From positions 1,824 through 65,823 of the forward strand of contig CAZTJT010000023.1 in assembly GCA_964613785.1 (NCBI GenBank): DNA of 64,000 bases. Reading direction: 5' to 3'. The stretch comes from an uncultured Rikenellaceae bacterium. Lineage in GTDB: Bacteria; Bacteroidota; Bacteroidia; Bacteroidales; VadinHA17. Positions 1 to 54,614 of the stretch are shown one piece after another; position 1 is the stretch's first letter, and each line of letters starts with the position of its first letter. The position numbers were made by a program, and so were the translations under genes. The notes under the pieces are model-generated. The model was not told where the DNA came from and made no database searches. It saw only the letters and a list, made by a program, of their open reading frames with translations.

Positions 1-1215
1 GTCGTTGTTTTCAGTTGCGGCAGGAGGCCATGAATCGAATCGTTTCCATGTATTTTCTCCTGTGATGAAGATAGTAGCTTCGGCAATATCGGGTTTTTCC
101 CCTTTGCCCTTCAGGAAATAGTTAAAGAATGGGATTTCAATGTTCTGCTGATACCATAATGAGGTGTTACTTCCGAAATGAATGTTGCCAAGATGTGTTC
201 CGTCACCCTGAGCCCATTGGACATGATACCACGGACCCATGACAAGCCTGTTGAATTCCTTTCCAGGATTGTTTGCTTCGGCAGCCTTGTAGGCATTCCA
301 GGCACCCCAGTTGTCTTCTGCATCAAAATGCCCTCCGACCCACAGCATTGCCGGATTAAGTTTTTTCGTAGCGTTTCTGGCATCCCGTGCTTTCCACCAG
401 TCGTCATAATCAGGATGGGCATATAGGTCCTTCCAGAAACGCACGCTGTCTCCAGCAAGTTTTGCAAAGGCAGGCAAAGCTCCCGTTTCAAGATAGAACT
501 TGTAGTTGTCATGTACCGGGATGTCGATTGTTTTCGGTCCTTTTGAAACGGGTTTTGGCCGGGGCAGACCGAAACCGGCACCCATGGCCGGATAAAAGCT
601 AAAAGCATCAAGGATGAAAAATGCTCCCTTGTGATGGAAATCGTCACCTATAAACCAGTTTGTTACGGGAGCCTGGGGGCTTACTGCCACGAGGGCAGGG
701 TGATTACTGGCAGCTGCCATAGTGGAATAAAAACCCGGATATGAAATTCCGAAAACACCAACTCTGCCATTATTATGAGGAATATTTTTGATCAGCCAGT
801 CTATTGCATCATACGTGTCGCTCGCTTCATCAATATCACTGGTTGTATTTTTATCAGGATTGAAAGGTCTGATATCTTCAAACTCACCTTCGCTCATCCA
901 TCTGCCGCGTACATCCTGCTTCACCATTATATACCCTTCAAGGAGATAATATTTCAAGTAAGTGTTCCAGAAATCCCTGAATTTGTCTTCACCATACGGA
1001 GCACAGGAATAAGGAGACCGTTCCATAAGAATGGGATGATCTTCCGATTTATCTTTGGGCATGTAAATTGATGTGAACAGTTTAACTCCATCCCGCATTG
1101 GGATCATCCTTTCGGTTTTGGTGTAGTTGTTTACGATCCATATACTGTCGGTATTCTGTGAATACAGACTCGAAATGAATGTACAAATAAGAGTTGAAAG
1201 AATCAGTTTTTTCAT
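1..1215 (-). CDS. CocE/NonD family hydrolase (alpha-amino acid ester hydrolase / glutaryl-7-ACA acylase-like), secreted; 3' end beyond the window
   Basis: Not in the ORF track because the stop lies outside the window. Hand-translated from ATG at 1215: MKKLILSTLICTFISSLYSQ signal, IPMRDGVKL, QDVRGR, nucleophile GISYPG, GGHFDAED, GPWYH; most of the frame was read through and no stop was seen. Confidence 0.9.
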   Translation of the reverse strand, partial: MKKLILSTLICTFISSLYSQNTDSIWIVNNYTKTERMIPMRDGVKLFTSIYMPKDKSEDHPILMERSPYSCAPYGEDKFRDFWNTYLKYYLLEGYIMVKQDVRGRWMSEGEFEDIRPFNPDKNTTSDIDEASDTYDAIDWLIKNIPHNNGRVGVFGISYPGFYSTMAAASNHPALVAVSPQAPVTNWFIGDDFHHKGAFFILDAFSFYPAMGAGFGLPRPKPVSKGPKTIDIPVHDNYKFYLETGALPAFAKLAGDSVRFWKDLYAHPDYDDWWKARDARNATKKLNPAMLWVGGHFDAEDNWGAWNAYKAAEANNPGKEFNRLVMGPWYHVQWAQGDGTHLGNIHFGSNTSLWYQQNIEIPFFNYFLKGKGEKPDIAEATIFITGENTWKRFDSWPPAATENND

Positions 1216-1613: not shown

Positions 1614-2213
1614 TCAGGAAGTAGCCTGTTCCGGTTTTTCACTCCTGGTACCTTTCTTCTGAGAATAGGTTCCCGGTAGAATAACATTGATGAGCTTTTT
1701 ACCCCAGAGTCCCAGTCTGATTCCGGTTCCCAGGGATAAAAGACCCAGCACGATTGTCAGGATATAGTTGTTTTCATTCCTGCCTGTGAAAAAAAGTATA
1801 ATTGAGAGAATCAGGATAATAATACTGAATATTATTTTTACCCTGAGCAGCGGAGTTTTGAGTGTTTTGAATCTCGTGAGTCCGTCAATAACACCGGTTA
1901 TAATAGCCAGGACGAGTGTAAAGGGAAACAGAAAAACCGAAAATATAAGAACATTCTTCAGAACATCCGGGAAGAAATTTCGGGCAAAGTGTGTAATCAG
2001 TGCAAGCAATGGGATTGCTATTACCAGTGTTTGAGATAGATGTATTGCAATAGGGTGCAGATCAAGATTAAGGATTTTCAGTCTGTTCAGTGATACTTTT
2101 TCCCTGTAAGGTTCAAAAACCTTCCTGGGTAATCCGCAGGCAGGACAAACATCACCAAGCTTATCGGCTTCAATTACAAATCCGCATGGACGGCAGCGTA
2201 AAAGTTCTTTCAT
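1614..2213 (-). CDS. Rubredoxin-like CxxC...CPxC domain fused to a DUF2231-like 4-TM membrane domain
   Basis: N-terminal CRPCGF...CPACG; HPIAIH motif followed by four hydrophobic helices. Confidence 0.75.
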   Translation of the reverse strand: MKELLRCRPCGFVIEADKLGDVCPACGLPRKVFEPYREKVSLNRLKILNLDLHPIAIHLSQTLVIAIPLLALITHFARNFFPDVLKNVLIFSVFLFPFTLVLAIITGVIDGLTRFKTLKTPLLRVKIIFSIIILILSIILFFTGRNENNYILTIVLGLLSLGTGIRLGLWGKKLINVILPGTYSQKKGTRSEKPEQATS

Positions 2214-4389: not shown

Positions 4390-4971
4390 TTAAACAAGAT
4401 CACATGCTTCCGGTGGCATCCAGTGGGCGTCTTTCCCTTCCCATTTGATATTGCATCCTATCGGATTTGTCATCGGCACCGAAATTGGTCTGCCTGATGA
4501 GAGTTCTTCAAGCGCCCTTTCGAGATCGTTTACCGTCATTCTTGATGTATCGCGGGGTGAGTCGACACCCCTGCCGGTATAAACAAGCTTTCTTTCTTCG
4601 TCAAAAACGAAAAAATGAGGTGTACGAAGAGCCCCATAAGCCTTTGCGACAGACTGATCTTTGTCATGAAGATATACCCATGGGAATCTATACTTCTCCA
4701 TTCTGCTGACCATATTGGAAAAGCTGTCTTCTGCGTAAGTATTCTCACTATTCGAGTTAATCCCAACGAATCCGGTACCTTTCTTTGCGTATTTCTCGGC
4801 CGTTGACCGGGTTACTTCATCCGAGCCTAATACATAGGGACAATGATTACAGGTAAAAAAAACAACAAGGTATCGGAATCTGTTGAAGTCGGAAAGCTTA
4901 TAATTCCTGCCGTCAGTAGCCGGAAGGTTGAAATCGACAGCTTTGCTGCCGGGTTGCAGTGTATAGGCCAT
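4390..4971 (-). CDS. Thioredoxin-fold AhpC/TSA (peroxiredoxin-like) family protein
   Basis: [31 protein letters not shown]. Confidence 0.9.
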
Positions 4972-11824: not shown

Positions 11825-11848
11825 CAAAGAAAAAATATTTTGTTATTA

Positions 11849-41151: not shown

Positions 41152-43764
41152 TCAAAAGATTATTTCTACAGGGCCTGTATTCCAGCCTTCCAACACGAGC
41201 CTGATCCCGTCTATTTTATCGGTTGCCTGGCCTTCGGGAAGCACAACCTTTATTTTCTTTGAATCACCGGGCAGCAGAGTGAAATAGCTCTCTGAAAAAT
41301 ATGTAGGAAGGATCAGATTTCCAATTTTGTCAACAACTTTCAGCCTGATGAAGAATGCGGTTTCGTTTTCCGTATTCGCGACTGATACAATGGCATCTTT
41401 TGTACCAGTTCTGCTGACATCCGTCTTCAAATTTACTTTCTGCAGGTCATTCAGTTTTTCATATGATTTTGGCTTGTTTGTCAGCCAGTAGATGTTCTCA
41501 TCAATAACCTCGTTGTTTTCTGAAAGAAGCAGTTTAAGGAAGAATACCTCACTGCCGCCATCAGGCAGCTCCACCTTGTCAAGCAACCTGGTATCATGAG
41601 CGTTGAGATCGAGAGTGTTTTTCCTCGAAAGGATCAGCTTCCCATGCAGATCATAAAGCATCACCTCTGCATTAAGGTTCTTTATGTTGCGGGCAGTCTG
41701 ATTAAGCACGCAAACCAGTGAGTCGTTAAGATTCAGCTGTATGTGAACTGGCTCAGCTCCATGCGCATAACCGAAATAGCCCCCGGTATAATCGAGATAA
41801 TAATCATAAAAGAATCCTCTCAGCGCTGTCCATGGATTCTGGTTCTTCCAGACCAGCATTCCCGTATACCAGTCCCACATTTTGTAATTGAATCCCTCCT
41901 GAAGAGCCCGGTATTGCTCGTAACTGACAATCTGTGCCTTAAAGCAAAAATCACTCACATCCTTCACTTTACCGTAGCGGTCGGGGAAATCAAGCAAGGG
42001 CAGGTATTTATGGTATGACCATGATCCTGAAGCCCTGAAACTGGACGGCGGGGTCATTTCATTTTCCGGAATGATCTTTTTCAGTCCGTCAAAATTGGGG
42101 ATCCCTATTGATCCTGTTTCAGGATTGAAAGGGAATGATCTTTCGGTAAAGATCTTTTCAGGTTCTCTTATTCCATAAGGGCCGTCACCCACACCGCCTA
42201 TTGAATTCGTCATCAGCACTGGTGAAGTTGACATGTCAAGGAAGAATCTTCCAGGGTCATAAACAGGAAAAATTCTGCTCTCCAGTGCTTTCAGAATGTC
42301 CGGCGGAGGGTAGGTTTCGTTTCCGCCGCACCAGAGATAAAGACTTGGGTGGTTTCTCAGCATTTTTATCTGATCGATTACCGATTCGAGAAAAAGATCA
42401 TGATTATCAGGATAAGCTTTTCTCCTGGCCTGTGATTCCTTCTTAAGCGGATCATTCCATTCCCCGTTACAATCTCCTGAGATCCAGATATCCTGCCAGA
42501 CAAGGATCCCGTATTTATCGCATGCATCGTAGAATTCAGGCCTTTCGGTGAGCCCTCCGCCCCACACCCTTATCATGTTCATATTCATTCCGGCATGCAA
42601 CCGGACCTCTGCCTCATATCTTTCCCTTGTGAGCCGTAGTAGTGCATCGGAGGCAATCCAGTTCCCTCCCTTAATGAAAACCTTTTGGCCGTTTACCTTG
42701 AAAACCTGTCCCTTGATCTGCTGATCAAAAGTGTTTGAGGTCTCCCTTATACCGAAAGTTACTGTTTCTGAATCCTGCAGGGTCCCATCAGACAGAACAA
42801 ATTCGATCTTCATCTGGTAAAGCGGTTGATCACCCATGCCGTTGGGCCACCAGAGCCTTGGATTATCCACCCTTATGCTGTTCAATGAAACATTCTTGGT
42901 TTCTAAGGGTGCAAGTGTTATTCTTACAGAGCTTTTATATCCTTCGAATTCAATCCTTAGTATTCCGTTTATTGCATCAGCCGAAGTGTTTATAAGATCA
43001 GCAGATACCTTTACGTATGCCGGATCCTGTTTTGCTCCCGGAACCCTCATGCCGGGCACTTTCGTTTCAATGAAAGGATCCCGCAGATCAACCTTCCCGG
43101 TAGTCTCTATGCTCACCTGGTCCCAGATCCCCGTATTACGATCCCTGATGGGACATATCCAGTCCCAGCCGGCGGTGAACTGCATCGCCACATTTCGGCC
43201 TATGGTGCCATCGCCGCCCTGACCGGCAGCAGCATTGCCTACAGGATCGGGTGGTGATACCAGAACTGCCAGCCTGTTTTTCCCGCCTTTAACCAGAAAT
43301 GGCGTGATCCTGTACTTCTCCCTGAGATACATCCCCTCATGGACTTTTGTGTTCACCCTGTTCCCGTTGAGATAAATATCTGCGAAATAATTTATACCCC
43401 TGAACCTCAGCCACACCTCCCTGTCTTCGCCCGTTTCAGGGATTTCAAATTCGTTGTAAAACCAGTAGGTATAGTGATCCCTTCCCGTATCGTAGACATC
43501 AGGTATCAGATTATTGTTCATGCCGAAAAAAGGATCGGGTATCAGCTTATTATGAAGCAGGGTTGTAAGGACAGTTCCCGGAACAACAGCATCGATCCAT
43601 CCCTGGGGATTGAAATCCTTACCTGTGATTACAGTGCCGTCAATTAATACATCGACAGCTTTTCTGGCTTTCCAGTTGCTGTTCAGAAGGAATGATGACT
43701 GCTGGGAGTAAGTTCCCTGGGAAAAAATAAATATCAAAGAACAGATCAGTAGATTTCGCTTCAT
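41152..43764 (-). CDS. GH2 glycoside hydrolase, close in motif to plant mannosylglycoprotein endo-beta-mannosidase
   Basis: Signal peptide; GWDWICPIRDRNTGIWD, WISGDC, RNHPSLYLWCGGNE, DGPY, FNPETGS. Confidence 0.9.
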   Translation of the reverse strand: MKRNLLICSLIFIFSQGTYSQQSSFLLNSNWKARKAVDVLIDGTVITGKDFNPQGWIDAVVPGTVLTTLLHNKLIPDPFFGMNNNLIPDVYDTGRDHYTYWFYNEFEIPETGEDREVWLRFRGINYFADIYLNGNRVNTKVHEGMYLREKYRITPFLVKGGKNRLAVLVSPPDPVGNAAAGQGGDGTIGRNVAMQFTAGWDWICPIRDRNTGIWDQVSIETTGKVDLRDPFIETKVPGMRVPGAKQDPAYVKVSADLINTSADAINGILRIEFEGYKSSVRITLAPLETKNVSLNSIRVDNPRLWWPNGMGDQPLYQMKIEFVLSDGTLQDSETVTFGIRETSNTFDQQIKGQVFKVNGQKVFIKGGNWIASDALLRLTRERYEAEVRLHAGMNMNMIRVWGGGLTERPEFYDACDKYGILVWQDIWISGDCNGEWNDPLKKESQARRKAYPDNHDLFLESVIDQIKMLRNHPSLYLWCGGNETYPPPDILKALESRIFPVYDPGRFFLDMSTSPVLMTNSIGGVGDGPYGIREPEKIFTERSFPFNPETGSIGIPNFDGLKKIIPENEMTPPSSFRASGSWSYHKYLPLLDFPDRYGKVKDVSDFCFKAQIVSYEQYRALQEGFNYKMWDWYTGMLVWKNQNPWTALRGFFYDYYLDYTGGYFGYAHGAEPVHIQLNLNDSLVCVLNQTARNIKNLNAEVMLYDLHGKLILSRKNTLDLNAHDTRLLDKVELPDGGSEVFFLKLLLSENNEVIDENIYWLTNKPKSYEKLNDLQKVNLKTDVSRTGTKDAIVSVANTENETAFFIRLKVVDKIGNLILPTYFSESYFTLLPGDSKKIKVVLPEGQATDKIDGIRLVLEGWNTGPVEIIF

Positions 43765-43777
43765 GACGTATGATATA

Positions 43778-44950
43778 TTACGATAATTTCCTTATTGAAC
43801 CGACATTATCTTTGATGATCACTCCCTCACCATGGTCGCCGAGGTCGACCATAAGCTCTTTAATGGCCCCGTTATGTTGGACGTTGTCTTTTATAACACA
43901 GCTTTCAAGTTTTTTCATAACAATCCCAAAGTCTGGTGAATAGATGCCTTTGCCGCCGTCGTCCCTTCCCGAATTGAGGGCATTTCCCGTGAAAACAAGT
44001 CCTTTTACCGATTCAAGCCTGACATGGGAGCTGTCATAATCATCGTTCTTACCCCATTCAGGCTTACCGCTCCTGTAGATGACGTTACCGGTAGCAGTAA
44101 TGGTCTCGCAACTCCTCTGGTTCGGCCCGGGAAGGAGAGCTATGCCACATCTGCCCGAACGATCTATATAATTGCCGGTAATATTGTAGTGAGATCCCCC
44201 GTAGATTATTATGCCTCCTTCACGGTTCCACTCGATGCGGTTACCGGTTATTGTATTGGATGCATTTTCATCATACGAGGCATATCCGGCCTTGCCGTTA
44301 CCAGAGAACCAGTTGTCGAGGATGAATCCATCCCAGCCACGTACCCGGAGTCCGCATCCCCTGTTATGGAAACAGTGAGAATGCCTGACACAGAAGCACC
44401 ATATCCTTTCAAGCCTTATCCCATCCCCAGAGAAATTTTCGACCCTGCATGTGTCTATCCTTGGAGTGTCTTCCTGAGTACCATAATCAGGCTTGTCAAT
44501 CAGGATCCCGTGTATCTCCCCGTCAATATTGTTGCCGTTCAGGCACAGTCCGAAAAGATATGCGCCAAATGCACCGGTTAGGTTTATAAGACACTTTCCT
44601 CCGCCTGTGAATGTCAGAATGGTTCCAATGCCTTTTCTGTAGCTCCATGCCGGCATTCCGTAAATTCCGATCCCTTCAGGCACCCTGAGCTCAGAGCAAA
44701 GATAATTGCCCTCAGGGATCATTACCGCTCCATGGGTCGATCCTGCAGTATCCAGGGCTTTCTGAATGGCAGCAGTATCGTCGGTCCTGCCATCGCCCCT
44801 GGCTCCATAATCCCTGACATTAAGCATTCCCGCACCGCCGTTAAAAACTGCCGGACCTGTATTGACAGAAGCCGAAGCCGCAACAGTCGATGCTGCCAGA
44901 ACTGATCCGGCAGATATGAATTTTCTTCTTGAACAGGCTGATTGTTTCAT
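43778..44950 (-). CDS. Tat-type right-handed beta-helix protein (pectate_lyase_3-like N-terminus)
   Basis: SRRKFI leader; NVRDYGARGDGRTDDTAAIQKAL; repeated ITGN/FTGN stacks. Confidence 0.85.
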   Translation of the reverse strand: MKQSACSRRKFISAGSVLAASTVAASASVNTGPAVFNGGAGMLNVRDYGARGDGRTDDTAAIQKALDTAGSTHGAVMIPEGNYLCSELRVPEGIGIYGMPAWSYRKGIGTILTFTGGGKCLINLTGAFGAYLFGLCLNGNNIDGEIHGILIDKPDYGTQEDTPRIDTCRVENFSGDGIRLERIWCFCVRHSHCFHNRGCGLRVRGWDGFILDNWFSGNGKAGYASYDENASNTITGNRIEWNREGGIIIYGGSHYNITGNYIDRSGRCGIALLPGPNQRSCETITATGNVIYRSGKPEWGKNDDYDSSHVRLESVKGLVFTGNALNSGRDDGGKGIYSPDFGIVMKKLESCVIKDNVQHNGAIKELMVDLGDHGEGVIIKDNVGSIRKLS

Positions 44951-45114
44951 GATAATTATATTTGTGATCAGATTAGATGATAAATTTAAGAATACATCCC
45001 GATAGTATGCAGCTTAAATCTGCTTTTCAACTGAAAGAAACAGAAAAAACATGACTTATGAAAAAAATGAACTGATTTCATTGATACGGATGGCAGATTG
45101 TCGCATTAAAAAAT

Positions 45115-45122
45115 TAAATTTG
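45115..45122 (+). promoter_or_regulatory. -7 box (TAAATTTG) for the CBM9-like/ceramidase-like/FAD oxidoreductase operon
   Basis: TAnnTTTG 43 nt upstream of ATG 45166. Confidence 0.45.
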
Positions 45123-45165
45123 ATTTTACCTGACTCTGTTATTTTCTGAACTAAATCAAACATAT

Positions 45166-46335
45166 ATGAAAAGCAATCAGCCAGCCGCTTCAATCATAAA
45201 CAGCCTTTTTAAGGTGACCTTGTTTTTATCAGTCTTAATTGTTGCCGGAGGATGTAAAAGATCTGCAGTCAGTGAAGATTTGTTGAAGTCAGTTATTCCG
45301 CCTGAACCTGATCCCCGGGGCTATGTATGCTTCAGAACCTCGTCTGCCATAACTCCCGATGGAATTCTCGACGAGCCTTCATGGATTGCCGCACCGTGGA
45401 CTGATTATTTTGTTGATATTGAGGGTGATGCAAAGCCCGTGCCGGCTCTTAAAACACATGCAAAACTGCTGTGGGATGATAAAAACCTGTATGTGGGTGC
45501 GGAACTGGAAGAACCCCATGTATGGGCAACCCTCAGACAGCGGGACACGGTTATTTTCTTCGATAACGATTTTGAGGTTTTTATTGACCCCGACGGGGAT
45601 ACACACAATTACTATGAGCTTGAAGTCAATGCCTTTGGAACAGAATGGGATCTTTTACTGACAAAACCATACAACGACGGAGGATTTCCGGTGAACGGAT
45701 GGGATATAAAGGGACTTAAAACAGGAACCCATGTTGAAGGAACGATAAATAACCCTGGTGACACAGACAAGGGCTGGAGCGTTGAGATAGTAATTCCTCT
45801 TGCAGCACTAAGGGAAGCTGCAGGAGTTGCAGGAATGCCAAAGGCGGGAGATCAATGGCGGATCGGTTTTTCACGGGTTCAATGGAGAATGGTGATCGAT
45901 GACGGAAAGTACCGTAAGGAGATTAATCCGGCAACGGGCAGACCATTCCCCGAAGATAACTGGGTGTGGTCGCCGCAGGGAAGGATCAATATGCATATGC
46001 CTGAGATGTGGGGATACCTTCAGTTTTCAGGGTTAACTGCCGGTTCCGGGACGGAAGAATTAACCCCCGACCCTGATCTCAACAGGAAATGGGCCCTGAG
46101 AATGATCTATTACGCGGAGAAAGAGTATTTTAAGAATAACAATAAGTATTCATCATGCCTTAAGAATATCGGACTGAAAAAGGAAGATCTTCCTGCTAAT
46201 GTCCCAACTCCGAAAATAGAAGTCACAAGAACAACTTTTGAGAGTTACTTCCCGTCAGGCAATGAAAAAGGCAACCTGGTTATTTACCATGACGGGCGGC
46301 TTGTTGACCTTACTAAAATCTCAAAAAACAGATGA
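45166..46335 (+). CDS. Carbohydrate-binding family 9-like (DOMON-type) lipoprotein
   Basis: Lipobox VAGGC; DGILDEPSW, LLWDDKNLY, NDFEVFIDPDGD, YYELEVN, WSVEIVIP, WVWSPQG..NMHMPE. Confidence 0.85.
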   Translation: MKSNQPAASIINSLFKVTLFLSVLIVAGGCKRSAVSEDLLKSVIPPEPDPRGYVCFRTSSAITPDGILDEPSWIAAPWTDYFVDIEGDAKPVPALKTHAKLLWDDKNLYVGAELEEPHVWATLRQRDTVIFFDNDFEVFIDPDGDTHNYYELEVNAFGTEWDLLLTKPYNDGGFPVNGWDIKGLKTGTHVEGTINNPGDTDKGWSVEIVIPLAALREAAGVAGMPKAGDQWRIGFSRVQWRMVIDDGKYRKEINPATGRPFPEDNWVWSPQGRINMHMPEMWGYLQFSGLTAGSGTEELTPDPDLNRKWALRMIYYAEKEYFKNNNKYSSCLKNIGLKKEDLPANVPTPKIEVTRTTFESYFPSGNEKGNLVIYHDGRLVDLTKISKNR

Positions 46336-46409
46336 ACCCCTTTATTAATATTGAATGTCAGATAGTTGAATCCTAAAGTATTGAATTGATTATTAAATTC
46401 TGCAGCCAT

Positions 46410-47681
46410 ATGAAGAGTATTTACTGTTTATTTTTAAGTGTTATTATTCTGACTGGTTCACCGACATCCGCATTGTGCCAGATACAGACAGGATCAGGCT
46501 CTCAGATTCTCATGGGAGCAAGCCAGACCAATATAACTCCTGCATTTCCGGTAATGATGAGCGGATATGAGGCACGCAAAACACCCTCAACAGGAGTTCA
46601 TGATTCATTGTTTGCCACAGCCCTTTATTTTAAAAGCCCCACTACATCATTGCTTCTGATTACAGCTGATCTTATAGGGTACAGCAAGGCTTTTGTTGAT
46701 GAGACCCGGAAGAAAATCACAGCAATAACCGATATCCCGGCGGAGAACATTATGATCACGGCAGCTCATAATCATGGAGGGCCAGTTACCAGGGCTTATG
46801 AGAAAGAGGTGCCTGAATCAGTGGAGAAATATGTAAAAGAGCTCCAGGACAAATTCATAAATCTTGCCGTAAGAGCCTCGAAAAAGCCTGTCCCGTTCAG
46901 GATGGGCACAGGTAAGGGAAAATGCACCATGAACATCAACCGTCGGGCTGAGTTTGCAGATGGCAGCATTTGGCTTGGAAGAGCGCCAGATAAACCATGT
47001 GATCATGATGTAACTGTCACAAAATTCGAAGACATGAGCGGAAAACTGCTGGCTGTTTTTATCAACTGGCCATGCCATGCGACAACAAATGGTCAGGATA
47101 ATTATATGATAACGGCCGACTGGCCCGGAGCGGCAACAAGATATATTAAAAAACATACTGGTGAAGGAACAGTTGTAGCCGTAACAGCCGGCGCATCAGG
47201 TGATATTAATCCTATTTACGGGCCAGGCAATGATTTCCGTGAAATAGAGGGAGTGGGATTTCATGTAGGAAGAACGGCATGGGAAACCTATAACAGTATA
47301 GAGACGATGCCGGTTGAATCGCTGGGAGCAGTTTCAGCATTAATGACATTCCCGGGTAAAAAGATGACAAAAGACCATTTTCCGCAAAAGGAATATGAAA
47401 AAGGCCCCGATGTTGAGATCGGATTGATTGTTTTCAAAATAGGCCATCTTATACTTACCGGTATTTCAGGTGAACTGATGAATGAGATCGGAAGTTCAGT
47501 CAAAACCAGGTCACCTTATACTGCCACTGCAATTATAACCCACTGCAATGGTTCAAGCGGGTATATATGCACTGACAAGGCATTCCCCGAAGGAGGTTAT
47601 GAAATAAAAGTTACCCGTCTTATGCCTGGTGCTGAAAAACCCCTGACAGACAAAATGCTGCAGATGATAAACTCGTTGTAA
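46410..47681 (+). CDS. Neutral/alkaline ceramidase-like N-terminal-domain protein, secreted
   Basis: ATG 46410; MSGY, HDSL.A.A, AAHNHGGP, NWPCHAT, GASGDINP, GYI.T...F.EGGYE. Confidence 0.75.
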   Translation: MKSIYCLFLSVIILTGSPTSALCQIQTGSGSQILMGASQTNITPAFPVMMSGYEARKTPSTGVHDSLFATALYFKSPTTSLLLITADLIGYSKAFVDETRKKITAITDIPAENIMITAAHNHGGPVTRAYEKEVPESVEKYVKELQDKFINLAVRASKKPVPFRMGTGKGKCTMNINRRAEFADGSIWLGRAPDKPCDHDVTVTKFEDMSGKLLAVFINWPCHATTNGQDNYMITADWPGAATRYIKKHTGEGTVVAVTAGASGDINPIYGPGNDFREIEGVGFHVGRTAWETYNSIETMPVESLGAVSALMTFPGKKMTKDHFPQKEYEKGPDVEIGLIVFKIGHLILTGISGELMNEIGSSVKTRSPYTATAIITHCNGSSGYICTDKAFPEGGYEIKVTRLMPGAEKPLTDKMLQMINSL

Positions 47682-47708
47682 AGGTTGTGCATTCAATTTT
47701 TTTACTTG

Positions 47709-49619
47709 ATGATGAAATCGGTAATCCTGAATTCTCTTTTGGCTGTGATTCTGACAACCGGAATCATTTCATGTAAAAAGCCGGCACATATAATTTATGT
47801 CGAAGCTGAGAATTTCAGTCACAGGGGAGGATGGGTAATCGATCAGCAGTCGATTGACCTTATCGGATCTTCATACATTCTGGCACATGGACTCGGAGTG
47901 CCCGTTGAGGATGCTGAAACAACAATCGAAGTTCCATCGGCAGGTAATTATAAGGTATGGGTCCGTACCCGGAACTGGGTTGCCCCCTGGAATGAAGAAA
48001 TATCTCCCGGCAGGTTTCAGCTTGTTGTGGATGGCGTTCCGCTTGATGCAATATTTGGAACAAATGGCATCAAATGGCACTGGCAGAACGGAGGGCGGGT
48101 AAATCTGAACAAAGGAAAGACCAGGCTTTCATTACGCGATCTGACCGGCTTTGAAGGCAGATGCGATGCAATAATTTTTACAGATGATCCCGACCTGATT
48201 CCCCCGGAAAACAGAGATGAACTTTATGACTTCCGGAAAAATCTTGCAGGTCAAGCCATTGCTCCTGAAGATGCCGGCGAATATGATCTTGTGGTTGTTG
48301 GAGGAGGAGTCGCGGGATGCTGCGCTGCGTTGAGCGCTGCCAGATACGGCTGCAAAGTTGCTCTCATACAGAACCGCCCTGTGCTTGGCGGAAATAACAG
48401 CTCCGAGGTTCGTGTGGGACTGTCTGGATTAATTTACCAGCAGCCCTATCCTAAACTTGGCAGACTTGTCGACGAAATCGGATCAATTGGGCACTGGACC
48501 CTGTGGGAAGCAATCCGTGATCCTGACTCCCCAAGGAGCAGACATATACTGGAGGTGATTGAGAAGAATCCTGAAAAGAAGATTCACAACACCGGCCCTG
48601 CAAGCAACTATGGTGATGAAAAGAAACTGGCTGTAATTGAAGCTGAGCCCAACATAAACCTGTTCCTTAATACTCATGTATTCAGGGTTGAAATGGATGA
48701 AGAAAAAATTACCTCTGTAACAGGTAAAAATATTGTTTCAGGTAAAGAAATTATCGTTCGGGGTAAACTTTTTGCCGATTGTACGGGAGATGCTAATCTT
48801 GGATTTCTGGCAGGTGCGGATTACAGGATAGGCAGGGAAAGCAAGGATGAGACAGGCGAGAAATGGGCACCTGAGAAAAGCGACAGCCTTGTCATGGGTG
48901 CCTCTGTCCAGTGGTTCGCCGAATTAACCAGTGCTCCTTCATCATTCCCGGAATGTCCGTGGGCAGAACAGTTCGATGAAAATACTTCGTATAAGGTCAC
49001 CAGGGGTGACTGGGACTGGGAAACAGGCCTGACCCGAGATCAGATTAATGACATAGAGTTCATAAGGGATTACGCCTTCAGGGTCACCTATGGCAATTGG
49101 GATTTCATAAAAAACAAGAGCTCTGAAAGGCAGAAGTTTGAAAATTACAAGCTTGAATGGGTGGCATATATTGCCGGTAAAAGGGAATCAAGAAGACTGA
49201 TGGGAGATGTCATTTTAAGCGAACATGATATTCTGCAAAGAGTTGAATATCCTGATGCGTCTTTTACCACTACCTGGAATATTGACCTCCATTATCCCTA
49301 TAAGTTGAAGGATTTCAACGGAGAACCATTCAGAGCCTATGCCGAGACCCGGCCTATAGATCCGTACCCGGTCCCTTACAGATGCCTTTACTCAAGAAAC
49401 ATTGAAAATCTATTTATGGCAGGCAGGGACATCAGTGTAACTCATGTGGCATTGGGAACGGTAAGAGTCATGCGGACAGGAGGGATGATGGGAGAAGTGG
49501 TGGGCATGGCGGCTTCATTGTGCAGAAAATATGATGTACTTCCAAGGGATATTTACAAAATTTATCTTGAAGAATTGAAGAACCTTATGAAGGATGGAGT
49601 TCCTTCCAGACAGGATTAA
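47709..49619 (+). CDS. FAD-dependent oxidoreductase (PF12831-like) lipoprotein with an N-terminal beta-sandwich domain
   Basis: Lipobox GIISC; EAENF...GGW...YILAHG N-domain; VVGGGVAG, LGGNNSSE, DCTGD, KRESRR, AGRDIS.TH...RVM. Confidence 0.88.
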   Translation: MMKSVILNSLLAVILTTGIISCKKPAHIIYVEAENFSHRGGWVIDQQSIDLIGSSYILAHGLGVPVEDAETTIEVPSAGNYKVWVRTRNWVAPWNEEISPGRFQLVVDGVPLDAIFGTNGIKWHWQNGGRVNLNKGKTRLSLRDLTGFEGRCDAIIFTDDPDLIPPENRDELYDFRKNLAGQAIAPEDAGEYDLVVVGGGVAGCCAALSAARYGCKVALIQNRPVLGGNNSSEVRVGLSGLIYQQPYPKLGRLVDEIGSIGHWTLWEAIRDPDSPRSRHILEVIEKNPEKKIHNTGPASNYGDEKKLAVIEAEPNINLFLNTHVFRVEMDEEKITSVTGKNIVSGKEIIVRGKLFADCTGDANLGFLAGADYRIGRESKDETGEKWAPEKSDSLVMGASVQWFAELTSAPSSFPECPWAEQFDENTSYKVTRGDWDWETGLTRDQINDIEFIRDYAFRVTYGNWDFIKNKSSERQKFENYKLEWVAYIAGKRESRRLMGDVILSEHDILQRVEYPDASFTTTWNIDLHYPYKLKDFNGEPFRAYAETRPIDPYPVPYRCLYSRNIENLFMAGRDISVTHVALGTVRVMRTGGMMGEVVGMAASLCRKYDVLPRDIYKIYLEELKNLMKDGVPSRQD

Positions 49620-49653
49620 TTTATTTGTTGTAACTAATCCATATTTCATTATA

Positions 49654-51444
49654 ATGAGAAATCCGTTTTTCGTAAGTGTATTTTTTTTGATCCTTGCATA
49701 CTCTTGTTCACAGGATAATTACAGGCTGCTTATTGAGGCCGAGAACTTTGATTCCAAAGGAGGATGGCTGGTCGATCCTCAGTTTGTTGAACAGATGGGA
49801 TCACCATATCTTCTGGCACATGGGCTCGGGGTTCCTGTGGAAGACGCAAGGACCGTTGCATCTCTTCCATCGGATGGCAGATATCGGGTTTGGGTAAGGA
49901 CAAAAAACTGGGCTCCAGGGGAATGGGAAGCTCCTGGTCGCTTTCAGATAGCTGTCAATGGGGAAGTCATAGAAGCTGTCCTCGGAACGGAAGAGGGCTG
50001 GGGGTGGCAGCTTGCCGGCTCAGTCAGATGCAATGGCACCAAAGTGACAGTTGAACTTAAAGACCTTACCGGTTTCGAAGCGCGATGCGATGCTGTTTAT
50101 TTTACCTCGGGGAAAGATATCCCCCCTGATGATCCCAAAGAGTTGTCGCAATGGAGGAGAGATCTCCTCGGAGAGGATGAAGAACCGCCACTGAGCAAAT
50201 CATTTGATCTGGTAGTTGTTGGAGGAGGAATAGCCGGCTGTGCAGCATCGATTTCTGCAGCAGAACAGGGATTAAAAGTGGCATTGATACACGACCGGCC
50301 CATACTTGGCGGCAACGCCAGCAGCGAGATACGAGTACATACAGAAGGGATTACCTGGAAATACAACAGGATCCTCAAAATGCTGAATACTGTATGGTGG
50401 CCCAATGGTTCGCCTGATGCTGTATATGATGATAAAAAGAGGCATGAAAATATCGAAAAATATACGGGTATTTCATTATTCCTGAACTGGAGAGCCTATA
50501 CGACCAATGTTTCAGAGGATTCAATAACCTCGGTAGATGCCCGCCATACCTCATCGGGTGAAAAAATACGATTCACTGCACCATTGTTTGTCGATTGTAC
50601 AGGCGACGGATGGATAGGCTACTGGGCCGGTGCCGATTATTTTTATGGCAGGGAGGATTCTGCATTATATCATGAAAACTGGGAGCTGTACAAGGAATTA
50701 TGGAGCCCGGCGAAAGCTGATGGGAGAGTTATGGGGTCATCGGTATTATGGAGAACCATCGACAAAGGAACCCCGGTAACATTTCCTGAGGTGCCATGGG
50801 CTTTGGCAGTTGCAGGCGATTATGCTGCAACAATGGGCACATGGAACTGGGAGTATTCAGATGACAATGTGCATCAAATAGATGATGCTGAACAGATCAG
50901 GGACCATATGCTTAAGGCAATTTACGGTTCTTTTTATAATGCAAAGCGAAAGCCTGAAAATATAAACCTGGACCTGGAATGGACCTCATACCTTTTAGGA
51001 AAAAGGGAATCGAGAAGACTGGCAGGAGACTACATTTATACTTTTGATGATGAAAGAAATATGCGAGAGTTCCCTGACGCTGTAGTAATGGAAAAAAGAG
51101 ATATCGACGTCCATTACCAGCAAAACCTTCTGGATCCGGATAAACCCGATTTCCTGTCGGAGGCTCTTTATTACAGGCTCGATCACTATTATATCCCTTA
51201 CCGGTCGCTTTATTCGAGGAACATTAAGAATCTTTTTATGGCAGGCAGATGTTTCAGCAGCTCGCATGTAGGGCTGGGAGGTCCAAGAGTAATGCACACA
51301 ACCGGCCAGATGGGAGCCGCAGTAGGCTATGCAGCATCAATATGCAGGAAGTATAATACTAATCCGCGGGGAGTCTCTTCAGAATACCTTGATGAACTGA
51401 AGCATCTGATTGAAAACTCCGACAAAGAAACAACCTTTAAGTGA
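49654..51444 (+). CDS. Second, paralogous FAD-dependent oxidoreductase lipoprotein
   Basis: ATG 49654; lipobox AYSC; same N-domain and VVGGGIAG, LGGNASSE, DCTGD, KRESRR, AGRCFS.SH motifs. Confidence 0.88.
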   Translation: MRNPFFVSVFFLILAYSCSQDNYRLLIEAENFDSKGGWLVDPQFVEQMGSPYLLAHGLGVPVEDARTVASLPSDGRYRVWVRTKNWAPGEWEAPGRFQIAVNGEVIEAVLGTEEGWGWQLAGSVRCNGTKVTVELKDLTGFEARCDAVYFTSGKDIPPDDPKELSQWRRDLLGEDEEPPLSKSFDLVVVGGGIAGCAASISAAEQGLKVALIHDRPILGGNASSEIRVHTEGITWKYNRILKMLNTVWWPNGSPDAVYDDKKRHENIEKYTGISLFLNWRAYTTNVSEDSITSVDARHTSSGEKIRFTAPLFVDCTGDGWIGYWAGADYFYGREDSALYHENWELYKELWSPAKADGRVMGSSVLWRTIDKGTPVTFPEVPWALAVAGDYAATMGTWNWEYSDDNVHQIDDAEQIRDHMLKAIYGSFYNAKRKPENINLDLEWTSYLLGKRESRRLAGDYIYTFDDERNMREFPDAVVMEKRDIDVHYQQNLLDPDKPDFLSEALYYRLDHYYIPYRSLYSRNIKNLFMAGRCFSSSHVGLGGPRVMHTTGQMGAAVGYAASICRKYNTNPRGVSSEYLDELKHLIENSDKETTFK

Positions 51445-51472
51445 GATATATCTTTTTCTTAAATATCTCCTT

Positions 51473-52474
51473 CTAGCGGGGCACCGCATATTTCCTTATA
51501 TATTCTTCGACGGGTGATGAACTGTCATAAATATGATTGTCGAATGGTATATCAGTCTGGTAATGATATCCTTCAGCCCATTCGAACCCGTATTTTTCAC
51601 CCAGCTTTTTGTTCTCGTTGAAAACAAATGCTTTTGCATAGTTGAAATTTGCCGTGTGATCATCTCCATCCAGAATAGGTAATCTTTTACCTTCCTTTGC
51701 AAGCCTTTCCCTTAATTTTACTCCGTTATTTCCGGCAGGACCCTTTGCAATATTTAGAAGATTTGCTTCTATCTTTCTGTCGATATAATCGCTGATGTCA
51801 ACTATCAGATTGTTGGTCTGCCCTGCACGGGAATAATAATATCTTTCTTTTGGTGTATAAGGTCCTATTCCGAAAGCAAAATGTTCAGGATAATCATTTG
51901 CTCCGGCAATCCATCTTGCAGCTTCTACGGCAAGACCTGTAACATAATGATCAGGATTTTCTTCATAGTGTCCCCATGGATCCATGCATACAATGGTATC
52001 AACCTTAAGGGCTCTGATAAGGAAGATGAACCTTTGCTTGAGATCCTGGATGCCAATACTGTCGAGCTGATGATGCGGCATAAGCAACTCAAATGATCCT
52101 TTCATTCCGTAGAAATCAGCAATGTTCTGGTTGTCAATTCTGTTCTGTTTATATTCACCTTCACCCCTTGCATCGTCTGTTACAGAACATAAATATCCGG
52201 TGTAGCCTTCATCCATCAGCTTGGCAATCAGACCACCAGCCGATAGGGGAATGTCATCGGAGTGAGGTTGTATTGCCAGCAGAACCTTGCCCTTATGGGG
52301 TTTGCCCTTTACTGACCTTTCTATCATCACCTCAGAATAGTCAACGTCATACCCCCATGGTACTTTCGTTTTCGGATCAAACTTATTCTGATTGCCTGTT
52401 GCTGACAGCCATGCAGTAGCTCCGCCAAGGGTGCCTGTAGCCAGTCCTTTCTGCAAAAATTCTTTACGTTTCAT
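51473..52474 (-). CDS. PIG-L/LmbE family deacetylase with a Tat-like leader
   Basis: KRKEFL leader (RK variant); QPHSDD and NPDH Zn/catalytic motifs. ATG 52474 is chosen because it gives the same leader spacing as the next gene; 52477 is the alternative. Confidence 0.85.
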   Translation of the reverse strand: MKRKEFLQKGLATGTLGGATAWLSATGNQNKFDPKTKVPWGYDVDYSEVMIERSVKGKPHKGKVLLAIQPHSDDIPLSAGGLIAKLMDEGYTGYLCSVTDDARGEGEYKQNRIDNQNIADFYGMKGSFELLMPHHQLDSIGIQDLKQRFIFLIRALKVDTIVCMDPWGHYEENPDHYVTGLAVEAARWIAGANDYPEHFAFGIGPYTPKERYYYSRAGQTNNLIVDISDYIDRKIEANLLNIAKGPAGNNGVKLRERLAKEGKRLPILDGDDHTANFNYAKAFVFNENKKLGEKYGFEWAEGYHYQTDIPFDNHIYDSSSPVEEYIRKYAVPR

Positions 52475-52503
52475 CATAATATAATTTTGATTTTAAAGGT
52501 ATG

Positions 52504-52572
52504 ATGGAACCACACATGTTTTATAAAATTATATTTATGAGTGTTTGTGTTTGCAAAACATGTGGGTTTCAT
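52504..52572 (-). repeat. Leader hairpin, copy A
   Basis: Arms ATGGAACCACACATGTTTT (52504-52522) and AAAACATGTGGGTTTCAT (52555-52572), 32-nt AT-rich loop. Confidence 0.8.
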
Positions 52573-52622
52573 AAAATTAATTTTTAGGTAATTCTTTGTT
52601 TCAATATGTTAATTTTTTCCAA

Positions 52623-54167
52623 TTATTTGGGTACAATACCTGTAGGCTGACCAATTGTAAATCGTCCGCTCCAGAGATGGTCTGAGGAACGTTTGTCATT
52701 CCATTCCTTTGTAGGGGCAAAATAGTTCCTGTCGGTCGGGTATAAATGCCTTTTCACCTCATCTTCATTCAGCTCAATGCCCAGCCCGGGGGCGGAGTCA
52801 GGCACAATGGCAAATCCTTTTTCAGTAAGCTTCCTCCCGTCGGTAGTTTTAACCAGGTTTTCCCACCATGGGTTGTCGACAGCCTGGGTGGTCATTTCAA
52901 GCGCAAGGAAATTCTGGGTGGCTGCTGCGCAGTGTACGCTGGCCATAAAGCCTACTGGAGAACTGGAGCAATGCATGGCCATGGCAATTCCTTTTTCCTC
53001 TGCATAATCACCGATCTTTTTCGTTTCCATAATTCCTCCCGCGGTATGCAGGTCGGGATGGACTATATCTACTGCATGATTATCGCATAGTCTGATGAAT
53101 TCCTCTTTGAGGTATATATCCTCACCTGTAAGTGTGGGAGTTTCCAAAGCATCCGACAGGACTTTAAGCTGACCTGTCATTTCCCAGGAGAGCATGTCCT
53201 CGAGCCAGGCGAGCCGGTAAGGTTCCAAAGCCTTTCCCACCCTTATGCAGTTATTAATATCATAATTGCCAAATCCGTCGGCCGACAATGGAATTTCATT
53301 TCCTGTAACACTTCTTATGAATTCAACATACCTGGCAAGTTCCGCAAGCCCCTTGTCGGTGATCTGAAGCTGAGTAAATGGCTGCTTGGTGCGGTTATAT
53401 GAAGTAATATCAGTGTATTTGGGATCGGCCCAGAATTTTGAATTGACCGTTATGCCGGGTATGTGGCTGATGGTTTCAAGGCTGGGATAGAACTTAAGCC
53501 AGGTATAGCCTTGTTGTTCAATACGTTCCTTTACATCCGCCTTGAATTTGCCGACATCCATATTAGCCCAGTTGTGCACCGGAATATAGGAATACAATCT
53601 TACCCTGTCGCGATATCTTCCCCCCAGAAGCTGCCAGCATGGAACACCGTATGCTTTACCCGCAAGATCCCATAAGGCCATCTCAACAGCACTTACACCA
53701 CCCCCCTGACGTCCGTGAAATCCAAACTGCTTAATTATCTTGAATAGCATTTCAACGTTGCATGGATTTTCACCAAGGATACGGCTCTTGAGCATCAGTG
53801 CATACCTTTCGTCGGCTGCATCCCTTACTTCTCCCAATCCGTATATTCCCTGGTTCGTATCGATCCTGATAAGCGGATTACGGGATCCGTCATCGGCCAG
53901 TTGAAGCACGCAATAGCGCATATCAGTTATTCTCAGTTCGGAAGGACTCGAGGAACGGCTGACATTCGAAGTGGTCCGGGCAATTAGTTCTTCTTCGTCA
54001 GAGAACATATAGGGAGCCAGTGATATTCCGCCTAAAAATGCTCCGGTCTTCTGCAGGAACCGCCGGCGATCAATTCCGTTAGTGGAATCAGGATTTTCTC
54101 TCATCGGGAAGCCAGCCTCTGTATATTCTTTGTTCGGCTGTAACAGATTTTTTAGGATGTTTTTCAT
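52623..54167 (-). CDS. Mandelate racemase/muconate lactonizing (enolase superfamily) enzyme with a twin-arginine leader
   Basis: DRRRFL; GLGEVRD, SAVEMALWDLAGKAYGVP, WLED, TGED, HPD. Confidence 0.9.
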   Translation of the reverse strand: MKNILKNLLQPNKEYTEAGFPMRENPDSTNGIDRRRFLQKTGAFLGGISLAPYMFSDEEELIARTTSNVSRSSSPSELRITDMRYCVLQLADDGSRNPLIRIDTNQGIYGLGEVRDAADERYALMLKSRILGENPCNVEMLFKIIKQFGFHGRQGGGVSAVEMALWDLAGKAYGVPCWQLLGGRYRDRVRLYSYIPVHNWANMDVGKFKADVKERIEQQGYTWLKFYPSLETISHIPGITVNSKFWADPKYTDITSYNRTKQPFTQLQITDKGLAELARYVEFIRSVTGNEIPLSADGFGNYDINNCIRVGKALEPYRLAWLEDMLSWEMTGQLKVLSDALETPTLTGEDIYLKEEFIRLCDNHAVDIVHPDLHTAGGIMETKKIGDYAEEKGIAMAMHCSSSPVGFMASVHCAAATQNFLALEMTTQAVDNPWWENLVKTTDGRKLTEKGFAIVPDSAPGLGIELNEDEVKRHLYPTDRNYFAPTKEWNDKRSSDHLWSGRFTIGQPTGIVPK

Positions 54168-54196
54168 ACGTATATAATTTTGATTTTAATGGTCGT

Positions 54197-54270
54197 ATGG
54201 AACCACACATGATTGAAAGTTAATTGTTTTCATTTTCTTATGTGATTTTGGTCAATCATGTGGGTTTCAT
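54197..54270 (-). repeat. Leader hairpin, copy B
   Basis: Arms ATGGAACCACACATGATTGA (54197-54216) and TCAATCATGTGGGTTTCAT (54252-54270), 35-nt loop. Confidence 0.8.
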
Positions 54271-54614
54271 GCCTGAATGATTTTATTGGGTTTTGATTTG
54301 CTATTGTGGACTGTTCATATAAATTTATTAAAGTCCTGAAATTAGGGACCACTTATTATGAAGATTGGCTATGGTTTTTATCATATAGTTTTACAGAGTT
54401 GTGCGGAGAAAACGCAGAGTTGAACAGAGACGTAATACCTTGTAACTACTGCATTAACAACTACTATCTCAGAGGTCTGGGTAAAATGGTTGCAAATTTC
54501 TTTCAGGAAGAATTAGCTTTGGTTCAGTTCCAGTTCAATTAATTTATTTCGCAAGTATTTATTAAATTGTACATTATTTAACCTTTCCGGATCCCGGATT
54601 AAAACCTAAGCGAT

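Follow-up and report, generated by a model that had tools for sequence, protein, structure and literature searches.

A probable lineage-specific mosaic of predicted exported enzymes in an uncultured Rikenellaceae bacterium includes a conserved pair of PIG-L-type and enolase-superfamily genes

Introduction

By textbook accounts, the dehydratases of the enolase superfamily and those of the UxuA type work in the cytoplasm, as do aldolases of the RraA type. In a system that Nasseri et al. are said to have described in Nature in 2024, glycans are reportedly broken down in the periplasm by oxidation and elimination, with Gfo/Idh/MocA oxidoreductases exported by twin-arginine translocation (Tat) and xylose-isomerase-fold lyases. 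For the acidic amino sugar GlcNAc1A, a route through the OngB deacetylase, the OngC deaminating dehydratase and the kinase KdgK is proven in Pseudoalteromonas prydzensis (PMC9537276). OngB is a D-aminoacylase-family protein and OngC a pyridoxal-phosphate enzyme of fold type III, both being cytoplasmic, and the ong cluster also encodes OngA (GH20), a TonB transporter and a symporter (PMC9537276). Here a run of seven genes at 43.8-54.2 kb of a 64,000-nucleotide (nt) stretch of DNA from an uncultured Rikenellaceae bacterium (hereafter, the window) was analysed. The genes encode a beta-helix protein, a CBM9-like lipoprotein, a ceramidase-like protein (Cer), two tandem flavoprotein lipoproteins (FAD1 and FAD2), a PIG-L protein and an enolase-superfamily enzyme with a predicted Tat signal (Tat-enolase). 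An earlier note on this DNA had read them as one periplasmic pathway that oxidises, de-N-acylates and dehydrates an amino/acid sugar before uptake.

The window corresponds to bases 1824-65823 of contig C23 of a genome of 4.4 Mb in 124 contigs, of which the closest public relatives are uncultured 'Rikenellaceae'/Bacteroidales metagenome-assembled genomes. Literature searches on Tat-exported enolase-superfamily enzymes, on PF12831 and on LmbE in polysaccharide utilization loci (PULs) gave nothing relevant. As detailed below, the seven genes are probably best explained not as one conserved pathway but as a lineage-specific mosaic within a larger amino-sugar/glycan island, composed of three independently inherited cassettes (A, B and the PIG-L/Tat-enolase pair C) and a singleton, with pair C proposed to act on an acidic amino sugar.

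Results

Conservation of the seven-gene arrangement

The seven genes form three orientation blocks (Table 1). Gene content and coordinates given in the earlier note were correct, and each of its seven family assignments was upheld by Pfam matches exceeding the curated cut-offs; its statement that all seven products carry export signals also held, N-terminal signals being predicted in 7/7. NCBIfam gave an equivalog-level assignment for none of the seven proteins. Conservation of the arrangement was examined from four anchors: PIG-L (79 genome loci), the CBM9-like gene (80 metagenome loci), FAD1 (five contigs) and Cer (about 400 class-level genomes). The 79 PIG-L loci, each with 10-kb flanks, were taken from a profile search in which a single genome stood for each species, and all 19 proteins of the island were run against them by local tblastn.

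The sole other locus with this arrangement was found in a sister genome (L011/L012, 68-96% identity), in the order Gfo-GH5-GH2-Bhelix-CBM9-Cer-FAD1-PIGL-enolase, where FAD2, the gene for a glyoxalase-fold protein and the gene for a 712-amino-acid (aa) lipoprotein are absent. With the sister genome excepted, beta-helix, CBM9, ceramidase-like, FAD, GH2 and GH5 genes were all missing beside PIG-L in the 79 loci. Orthologs of Cer, FAD, PIG-L and the enolase were found in none of the 45 CBM9-anchored loci with at least 1.5 kb of downstream sequence, and flavoproteins or the ceramidase-like gene occurred together with PIG-L/enolase in 0 among about 160 other loci. Absence of conserved clustering, which the earlier note had named beforehand as speaking against its proposal, is thus what the four-anchor comparison found for the seven-gene set; the expected co-occurrence of the families across lineages was seen outside the window only in the sister genome. 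Outside a single bacterial family, the reading of the genes as one pathway thus finds no support. The de-N-acylation/dehydration half of the proposed pathway survives as a conserved unit of PIG-L and Tat-enolase, both predicted to be exported, whereas the flavoprotein step that would oxidise the substrate first is without comparative support.

A further locus, L097 (77-94% identity to island genes), indicates where the arrangement may have been interrupted. It carries MFS-SIS, followed further on by GH5, GH2 and beta-helix genes on the opposite strand and then by CBM9 and the 712-aa gene; at 10001-13638 of L097, to be compared with 45166-56753 of the window, the CBM9-like gene is followed after about 330 nt by an ortholog (82%) of the 712-aa lipoprotein. 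Because CBM9 directly precedes the 712-aa gene in L097, the five-gene block Cer-FAD1-FAD2-PIGL-enolase (46.4-54.2 kb) looks like a lineage-specific insertion or accretion. Whole-genome searches at the order level (151 genomes) and class level (about 400) with PIG-L and the ceramidase-like protein returned almost no orthologs, which is evidence of their rarity.

Conserved linkage and genomic contexts of PIG-L and the Tat-enolase

Pair C was counted over 24 Bacteroidota loci, the window included, in which PIG-L is at least 51% identical. In 22 of these, an enolase ortholog (58-93%) lies on the same strand as PIG-L, adjacent or one gene away; either the enolase gene comes first and PIG-L next, or PIG-L comes first with one gene in between. 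This linkage fails twice, on a contig of 2.5 kb and at a locus that carries a 53% 'solo' PIG-L subtype. The pair is distributed over Bacteroidales, Chitinophagaceae, Cyclobacteriaceae and Sphingobacteriaceae, and no further gene family was common to more than five of the 24 loci. At greater distance (45-53%), the PIG-L homologs, most of them from Acidobacteriota, stand alone, and no conserved partner was found for those of Acidobacteriota. Tandem arrays of three to six divergent PIG-L genes (53-81% mutual identity, zinc motifs intact) stand beside one or two Tat-enolase genes in L021 (2633-10993), L022 (3011-8263) and L024 (5420-14787), an arrangement suggesting that a single downstream step is fed by several N-acyl substrates.

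Among 93 open reading frames (ORFs) within 4 kb of pair C in 18 loci, a Pfam census identified seven UxuA/xylose-isomerase-like TIM barrels (AP_endonuc_2), themselves with a predicted Tat signal, five SusD, five further enolase-superfamily genes, four proteins of RraA-like aldolase fold with a predicted signal of the general secretory (Sec) type, three SBF-family transporters, three GH20 and two PfkB kinases. Individual loci combine several of these. In L095 ('Rikenellaceae'), the order PIGL-SBF-enolase-x-GH20-GH20 lies beside two heparinase-II/III-type lyases and SusC, and in L096 genes for two PfkB kinases and for dehydrogenases lie around enolase-PIGL-SBF. The genome of the window itself contains, at C9:68317-81961 (L178), an operon DUF362-RraA-like(sec)-Tat-enolase-DUF362-Tat-UxuA-like-SBF-PfkB, adjoined by GH88 and a heparinase-II/III-like gene, in which the enolase is 60% identical to that of the window. 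Because of these neighbours elsewhere, the Tat-enolase is to be placed in a broader, uncharacterised set of 'cytoplasmic-type' acid-sugar enzymes that are predicted to be exported, with PIG-L as an optional partner.

This genome has about 12 enolase-superfamily paralogs in total, five or six of which stand in a row on contig C54. At C59:1633-4615 (L179), a third paralog of the Tat-enolase (57%) is preceded by a Gfo/Idh/MocA oxidoreductase with a putative Tat signal (STRRKFIKQ), and a further enolase-superfamily gene of the window (11849-13135, minus strand, 428 aa) lies directly upstream of an MFS transporter gene (10529-11827).

Catalytic features of the pair C enzymes

The Tat-enolase contains both the capping and the barrel domain and belongs to the mandelate racemase (MR) subgroup, being GalD-like. 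Residues were mapped on Escherichia coli DgoD by pairwise BLASTP; adding DgoD to the MAFFT alignment of orthologs shifted the motifs by about 10 residues, and that alignment was therefore left unused for the mapping. The carboxylate metal ligands D296, E322 and E346, which in this subgroup stand at the ends of strands 3, 4 and 5, correspond to D183, E209 and E235 of DgoD and are invariant in 22 orthologs. The His-Asp base dyad H399/D371 (H285/D258 of DgoD) is conserved in the orthologs, as is E424, the Glu after strand 8, which is also shared with DgoD. An insertion of about 45 residues is present at 225-270, and a conserved linker follows the signal. The best NCBIfam match, PRK14017, scored 177.6 bits against a cut-off of 311, leaving the protein outside the D-galactonate dehydratase equivalog. 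Its nearest solved structures (2qq6, 3rcy and 4j3z) are enolase-superfamily proteins without assigned function.

PIG-L carries the zinc motifs PHSDD and NPDH; across 14 sequences, no variation was seen at H72, D74, D75, P175, D176 or H177 of these motifs. Its nearest relatives in PDB are diacetylchitobiose deacetylases (Dac; 3wl4 and 8bgn, E about 1e-12 to 4e-13), BshB1 being also among them. The BshB1 equivalog, though the best NCBIfam match, was not reached (67.6 against 182.5 bits).

Predicted export signals

The signals of pair C differ in the twin-arginine motif. The Tat-enolase is predicted to have a long Tat leader (DRRRFLQK), with RRRFLQK at residues 34-40 after an n-region of 33 residues, and its RR is conserved in 21/22 orthologs. 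PIG-L has a Tat-like KRKEFLQKG with RK in place of RR; over the window and loci L012-L090, RK is found in 28 of 30 enolase-linked copies, as against RR in 36 of 48 distant solo homologs, and a solitary PIG-L paralog of the same genome (C17:53370) likewise has RR (MKRRDFFEK). The RK pattern of PIG-L beside the RR of the enolase may fit co-export of the two proteins. TatC is encoded on contig C20 (223.6 bits).

As to the other five proteins, the beta-helix protein has a putative Tat-type SRRKFIS followed by a weakly hydrophobic h-region, and its residues 7-183 resemble TIGR03808, 'TAT-translocated repetitive protein', with a score under the model cut-off. Lipoprotein-type signals are predicted for the CBM9-like protein (..VAGGC), FAD1 (..GIISC) and FAD2 (..LAYSC, from Met21), and a Sec-type signal for the ceramidase-like protein (from Met9). 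Flanking proteins also appear to be exported: GH5, GH2 and the glyoxalase-fold protein at one end of the run, and at its other end the 712-aa lipoprotein. This makes a total of 11 consecutive proteins with predicted export signals. Such a run is not due to chance but is typical of glycan-foraging islands. The sole Gfo/Idh/MocA protein of the window (37695-38702) shows no signal-peptide motif.

Cassettes A and B and the ceramidase-like singleton

Cassette A comprises the beta-helix and GH2 genes and the CBM9-like gene divergent from them. Among 21 CBM9 loci (CBM9 at least 59% identical, at least 1.5 kb upstream), 14 keep GH2 and/or beta-helix orthologs (64-83% identity) in the same divergent layout; GH2 orthologs (64-83%) adjoin the CBM9-like orthologs in 12 of the 21 informative metagenome loci, and beta-helix orthologs (64-82%) are kept beside CBM9/GH2 orthologs. 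The closest solved relative of GH2 is the exo-beta-D-glucosaminidase CsxA (PDB 2vzo, E 3.8e-67), followed by beta-mannosidases. An assignment of the GH2 genes as plant-type endo-beta-mannosidases was rejected, the PDB ranking placing CsxA clearly first. For the beta-helix protein, which is of the right-handed type, PDB gave weak matches to pectate-lyase-fold enzymes only. The 712-aa lipoprotein had no Pfam match, and its residues 81-238 resemble a GH5 mannanase in PDB (E 2e-5); GH5-type enzymes are frequent near cassette A. By gene order in L097, this lipoprotein is assigned to cassette A and not to the inserted block. Cassette A has the look of an unremarkable set of glycosidases, periplasmic or at the cell surface, for breaking down a beta-linked glycan containing glucosamine/N-acetylglucosamine (GlcN/GlcNAc) or mannose.

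Cassette B consists of FAD1 and FAD2, paralogs of 42% identity, both with a CBM-like N-domain. Their PF12831 matches span about 410/416 profile positions, and the dinucleotide-binding GxGxxG is present as VVGGGVAG and VVGGGIAG, respectively. The start of FAD1 agrees with a database copy of 635 aa. An AlphaFold model of FAD1 (predicted local distance difference test score, 76.6) shows an N-terminal CBM-like beta-sandwich joined to a flavoprotein body. Foldseek placed the body nearest to fumarate reductase, flavocytochrome c3 and 3-ketosteroid dehydrogenase (KstD) at template modelling (TM) scores of 0.25-0.30, and gave a CBM35-like match of low TM for the N-domain. The structure search was thus discarded as a means to a specific enzyme identity for FAD1, as only a generic fumarate-reductase/KstD flavoprotein fold and a CBM35-like domain were returned. 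By sequence, solely the Rossmann motif of FAD1 matched in PDB, where FAD1/FAD2 have no solved relative.

On three long contigs (L092-L094), FAD1 orthologs (69-71%) and then FAD2 orthologs (71-72%) come directly after SusC-SusD. In Mariniphaga anaerophila, a 66% FAD1 ortholog lies amid sulfatases, GH88, GH2 and a pair of Gfo/Idh/MocA and AP_endonuc_2 genes, with a faint match to C5-epim_C in the same locus. FAD1/FAD2 probably catalyse a redox step on an imported glycan. The SusC-SusD-FAD1-FAD2 unit, at L092 1-11741, L093 1-11716 and L094 201-8873, is a conserved flavoprotein 'PUL' lacking a glycoside hydrolase. Two of these contigs have, ahead of the unit, genes for another PF12831 protein (748 aa), their third, and for an AP_endonuc_2 TIM barrel.

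The ceramidase-like protein matches PF04734 at positions 2-256 of 509, that is, in the N-terminal catalytic domain only, and is 423-431 aa long against 646 aa for ceramidase 2zws, which it matches in PDB at E 6e-7. At the equivalog level, NF041649 gave 16 bits against a cut-off of 1200. A single ortholog (52%) was found in the class-level set, with no module genes beside it. The gene is, as far as its sequence tells, a rare singleton of the secreted-amidase type without conserved partners.

Gene layout and a dispersed repeat

The seven genes lie in an amino-sugar/glycan island at about 28.7-56.8 kb of the window, which also contains NagA, CE4, ROK, MFS, SIS and two CsxA-like GH2 genes. On the plus strand, CBM9-Cer-FAD1-FAD2 are separated by gaps of 30-75 nt when the probable start codons are taken, and on the minus strand the enolase gene is followed by PIG-L (54167-51473) after 145 nt. 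Pfam matches to a SusC/SusD pair were absent from 38/41 non-overlapping window ORFs of at least 150 aa (1..1215, 1614..2213 and 4390..4971 were unscanned), and no recognisable regulator was present among the scanned ORFs of the window. A search for duplication of the module within the genome was negative, the paralogs being scattered.

Table 1. Positions in the window of the seven genes, neighbouring genes and repeat copies.
Feature	Position	Strand	Family match or remark
GH2	41152-43764	-	Pfam GH2 domains and Ig_GlcNase; 13 nt downstream of beta-helix gene, same strand
Beta-helix protein	43778-44950	-	Beta_helix / Pect-lyase_RHGA_epim, PF13229/PF12708
CBM9-like lipoprotein	45166-46335	+	CBM9_1, PF06452, 43.8 bits
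Ceramidase-like protein (Cer)	46410-47681 (ORF from 46386; probable start 46410)	+	Ceramidase_alk PF04734, 48.7 bits
FAD1	47709-49619 (ORF from 47685)	+	FAD_oxidored PF12831, 244.8 bits
FAD2	49654-51444 (ORF from 49594)	+	FAD_oxidored PF12831, 212.9 bits
PIG-L	51473-52477	-	PF02585, 46.3 bits (cut-off 28.2)
Dispersed repeat, copy 1 (94 nt)	52479-52572	-	Ends 1 nt before PIG-L start codon
Enolase-superfamily gene	52623-54167	-	MR_MLE_N PF02746, 43 bits; MR_MLE_C PF13378, 146.9 bits
Dispersed repeat, copy 2 (99 nt)	54172-54270	-	Upstream of enolase gene
712-aa lipoprotein	54615-56753	+	Weakly GH5-like

The two genes of pair C are each preceded by a copy of a dispersed repeat with the architecture ATGAAACCCACATG, about 40 nt, CATGTGTGGTTCCAT, 7 nt, TTAAAATCAAAATTATAT. 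The repeat is 94 nt long (82 nt in some copies), contains an internal inverted repeat of 14-15 nt and is present in at least 50 copies genome-wide, for example at C1:140760, C5:48557 and C7:24476 of this genome (G000). Of 50 copies, 33 end exactly 1 nt before an ORF starting ATGATGAAA (MMK...), and among these ORFs many begin with a signal peptide. The repeat resembles a promoter/leader cassette that is mobile or spread by gene conversion, perhaps supplying the start codon. That PIG-L and the enolase have a leader hairpin in common was considered as evidence of co-regulation and was rejected, most of the copies abutting start codons of unrelated genes; because of this dispersal over the genome, the shared leader points to no specific regulator.

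Discussion

The Tat-enolase/PIG-L pair is a credible candidate for a periplasmic variant of acid-sugar catabolism. Both proteins would be exported folded to the periplasm, the deacetylase with its RK signal perhaps together with the RR-bearing enolase. There, PIG-L would strip the N-acetyl group from an N-acetylhexosamine (HexNAc)-type residue of an acidic sugar or disaccharide, and the enolase, by means of Mg2+ and the His-Asp dyad, would abstract the proton alpha to the carboxylate, leading by beta-elimination to a 2-keto-3-deoxy-type acid. De-N-acetylation and beta-elimination are proposed since the catalytic residues of the enolase and the full zinc site of PIG-L are conserved. Where an SBF transporter gene is adjacent, as it is elsewhere, its product would import the acid, to be phosphorylated by the PfkB (KdgK-like) kinase. 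On a wider and more tentative view, which we hold as a possibility rather than an expectation, the Tat-enolase could be the core of an undescribed periplasmic acid-sugar system of Bacteroidota, with PIG-L (up to six), Tat-UxuA-like, secreted RraA-like and DUF362 proteins as variable partners and PIG-L perhaps co-exported. This system would convert acidic (amino) sugars of HexNAc/uronate glycans or of oxidised chitin to 2-keto-3-deoxy acids, which then would pass through an SBF symporter to a KdgK-like kinase.

Several points weigh against the preferred explanation, that is, a lineage-specific mosaic with pair C acting on an acidic amino sugar. The compared loci were the best-scoring 80 of each scan and not an unbiased sample, and the export signals were called from sequence motifs only. 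Most of the arrangement persists in the sister genome, and the whole cluster may thus be under selection within this family. Because their gaps are only 30-75 nt, CBM9-Cer-FAD1-FAD2 are probably one transcript in this genome, and they may have gained a shared role locally. At the position of the general acid His185 of DgoD, two residues after the first metal ligand, the enolase has F298, and this position varies among the orthologs; dehydration is not assured because of this replacement, epimerisation or elimination of a better leaving group being the alternatives. The contexts of pair C, moreover, point in two directions, one of aldonate type (GH20, PfkB) and one of uronate type (lyases, GH88).

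These points bear on three other explanations. If the seven genes were one pathway recently assembled in this lineage, the flavoproteins would act in the periplasm as oxidases of an oligosaccharide or amino sugar (with, for instance, C1 oxidation to the aldonate), Cer and/or PIG-L would de-N-acylate it, and the enolase would dehydrate or deaminate the product before uptake. Predicted export of all seven proteins, their position within the amino-sugar island (NagA to the two CsxA-like GH2 genes), the tight spacing of CBM9-Cer-FAD1-FAD2, the arrangement kept in the sister genome and a chemistry coherent with the known GlcNAc1A route (PMC9537276) all agree with this pathway. It is nevertheless very unlikely, as neither the flavoproteins nor the ceramidase-like gene ever accompany PIG-L/enolase in the roughly 160 other loci, FAD2 is lost from the sister genome itself, and the orthologs of FAD1/FAD2 stand near SusCD or sulfatase genes where both PIG-L and the enolase are missing. 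Flavoproteins of the predicted Sec/lipoprotein type would also have to acquire FAD outside the cytoplasm, and their modelled fold resembles fumarate reductase/KstD, not a sugar-1-oxidase. The lyase-containing contexts raise another possibility, namely that pair C acts on uronate disaccharides from lyase-degraded, glycosaminoglycan-like glycans. PIG-L would then deacetylate alpha- or beta-linked GlcNAc, and the enolase would take H5 of the uronate and eliminate the 4-O-linked amino sugar as an exo-lyase, or process the unsaturated uronate toward 2-keto-3-deoxygluconate in the periplasm. The two heparinase-II/III-type lyases beside the pair in L095, GH88 and the heparinase-like gene beside the 60% enolase paralog of the same genome, and the Mariniphaga locus of the FAD1 ortholog with its GH88, sulfatases and faint C5-epim_C match are in line with such substrates, and a missing GalD acid His would fit a different leaving group. 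The lyase and GH88 contexts make such a uronate-HexNAc substrate an alternative to be taken seriously, though an unlikely one: lyases were present in just two or three contexts, cleavage of a glycosidic bond is not known for members of the enolase superfamily, and monosaccharide acids would suit the GH20 and PfkB contexts just as well.

PIG-L and the enolase might also be linked by export and not by chemistry, the RR-bearing enolase carrying the RK deacetylase through the Tat pore as a complex, in which case their substrates need not be consecutive. Such carriage would account for the strict adjacency of the two genes and for the distribution of signals (RK in 28/30 enolase-linked PIG-L, RR in 36/48 solo copies and in 21/22 enolases), yet up to six divergent PIG-L genes beside a single enolase hardly fit a fixed stoichiometric complex, RK signals can still be Tat-competent, and the neighbouring metabolic genes indicate a shared pathway. 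We regard export as the only link as highly improbable, and the mosaic with a catalytically linked pair C as the likely explanation.

A suggestive run of exported enzymes is thereby shown not to be a pathway, and attention shifts to its conserved part. If the proposal for pair C is true, some Bacteroidota run committed steps of acid-sugar catabolism in the periplasm, through widespread exported enzymes coupled here to PIG-L. This catabolism would then stand as a counterpart to the KduI/KduD and Ong routes, non-orthologous to them and at another place in the cell, and the many enolase-superfamily sequences and structures that lack an assignment would gain a function. Pair C would also be a candidate for the way in which Bacteroidota of soil and sediment use oxidised chitin or acidic amino-sugar glycans. 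The conserved position of FAD1/FAD2 right after SusC/SusD merits separate attention.

The locus can be compared with five known systems. Like SusC/SusD PULs, this stretch of the window clusters lipoproteins and glycan-active enzymes that are predicted to be exported, and orthologs of cassettes B and C adjoin SusC/SusD elsewhere; it differs from them in having neither a SusC/SusD pair nor a recognisable regulator among the scanned ORFs. With the DgoD/GalD-like branch of the enolase superfamily, the Tat-enolase shares both domains, all three metal ligands, the Asp-His base dyad and the Glu that follows strand 8, but it lacks the acid His and has the insertion of about 45 residues and an N-terminal predicted Tat leader of about 60 residues. 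PIG-L shares the zinc-binding PHxDD and xPDH motifs with the CE14/PIG-L-LmbE proteins (archaeal Dac, BshB1 and MshB). It differs from these in its putative Tat-type signal, a C-terminal extension of about 100 residues and a conserved partner that is of the enolase superfamily and not a glucosaminidase. In Thermococcales, Dac operates together with an exo-beta-glucosaminidase; the CsxA-like GH2 genes are present in the same window as PIG-L.

The oxidation-elimination system of Nasseri et al., as reported, is a precedent for Tat export of cofactor-bearing 'cytoplasmic-type' enzymes and for non-hydrolytic processing of glycans in the periplasm of Bacteroidota, and AP_endonuc_2 and Gfo/Idh/MocA genes accompany FAD1 orthologs elsewhere. 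The window, in contrast, has enolase-superfamily, PIG-L and PF12831 proteins, and its Gfo/Idh/MocA protein is predicted to be without a signal peptide. With the ong oxidative chitin pathway, pair C would share the same logic, namely that an acidic amino sugar loses its N-acetyl group, is turned by elimination into a 2-keto-3-deoxy acid and is then phosphorylated by a PfkB kinase, and accessory genes of the same types (TonB/SusC, GH20, Na+ symporter and PfkB) stand beside pair C elsewhere. The difference lies in the enzymes themselves, those of pair C being non-homologous to OngB and OngC, a zinc deacetylase of the PIG-L/CE14 type and an enolase-superfamily member, both with predicted export signals.

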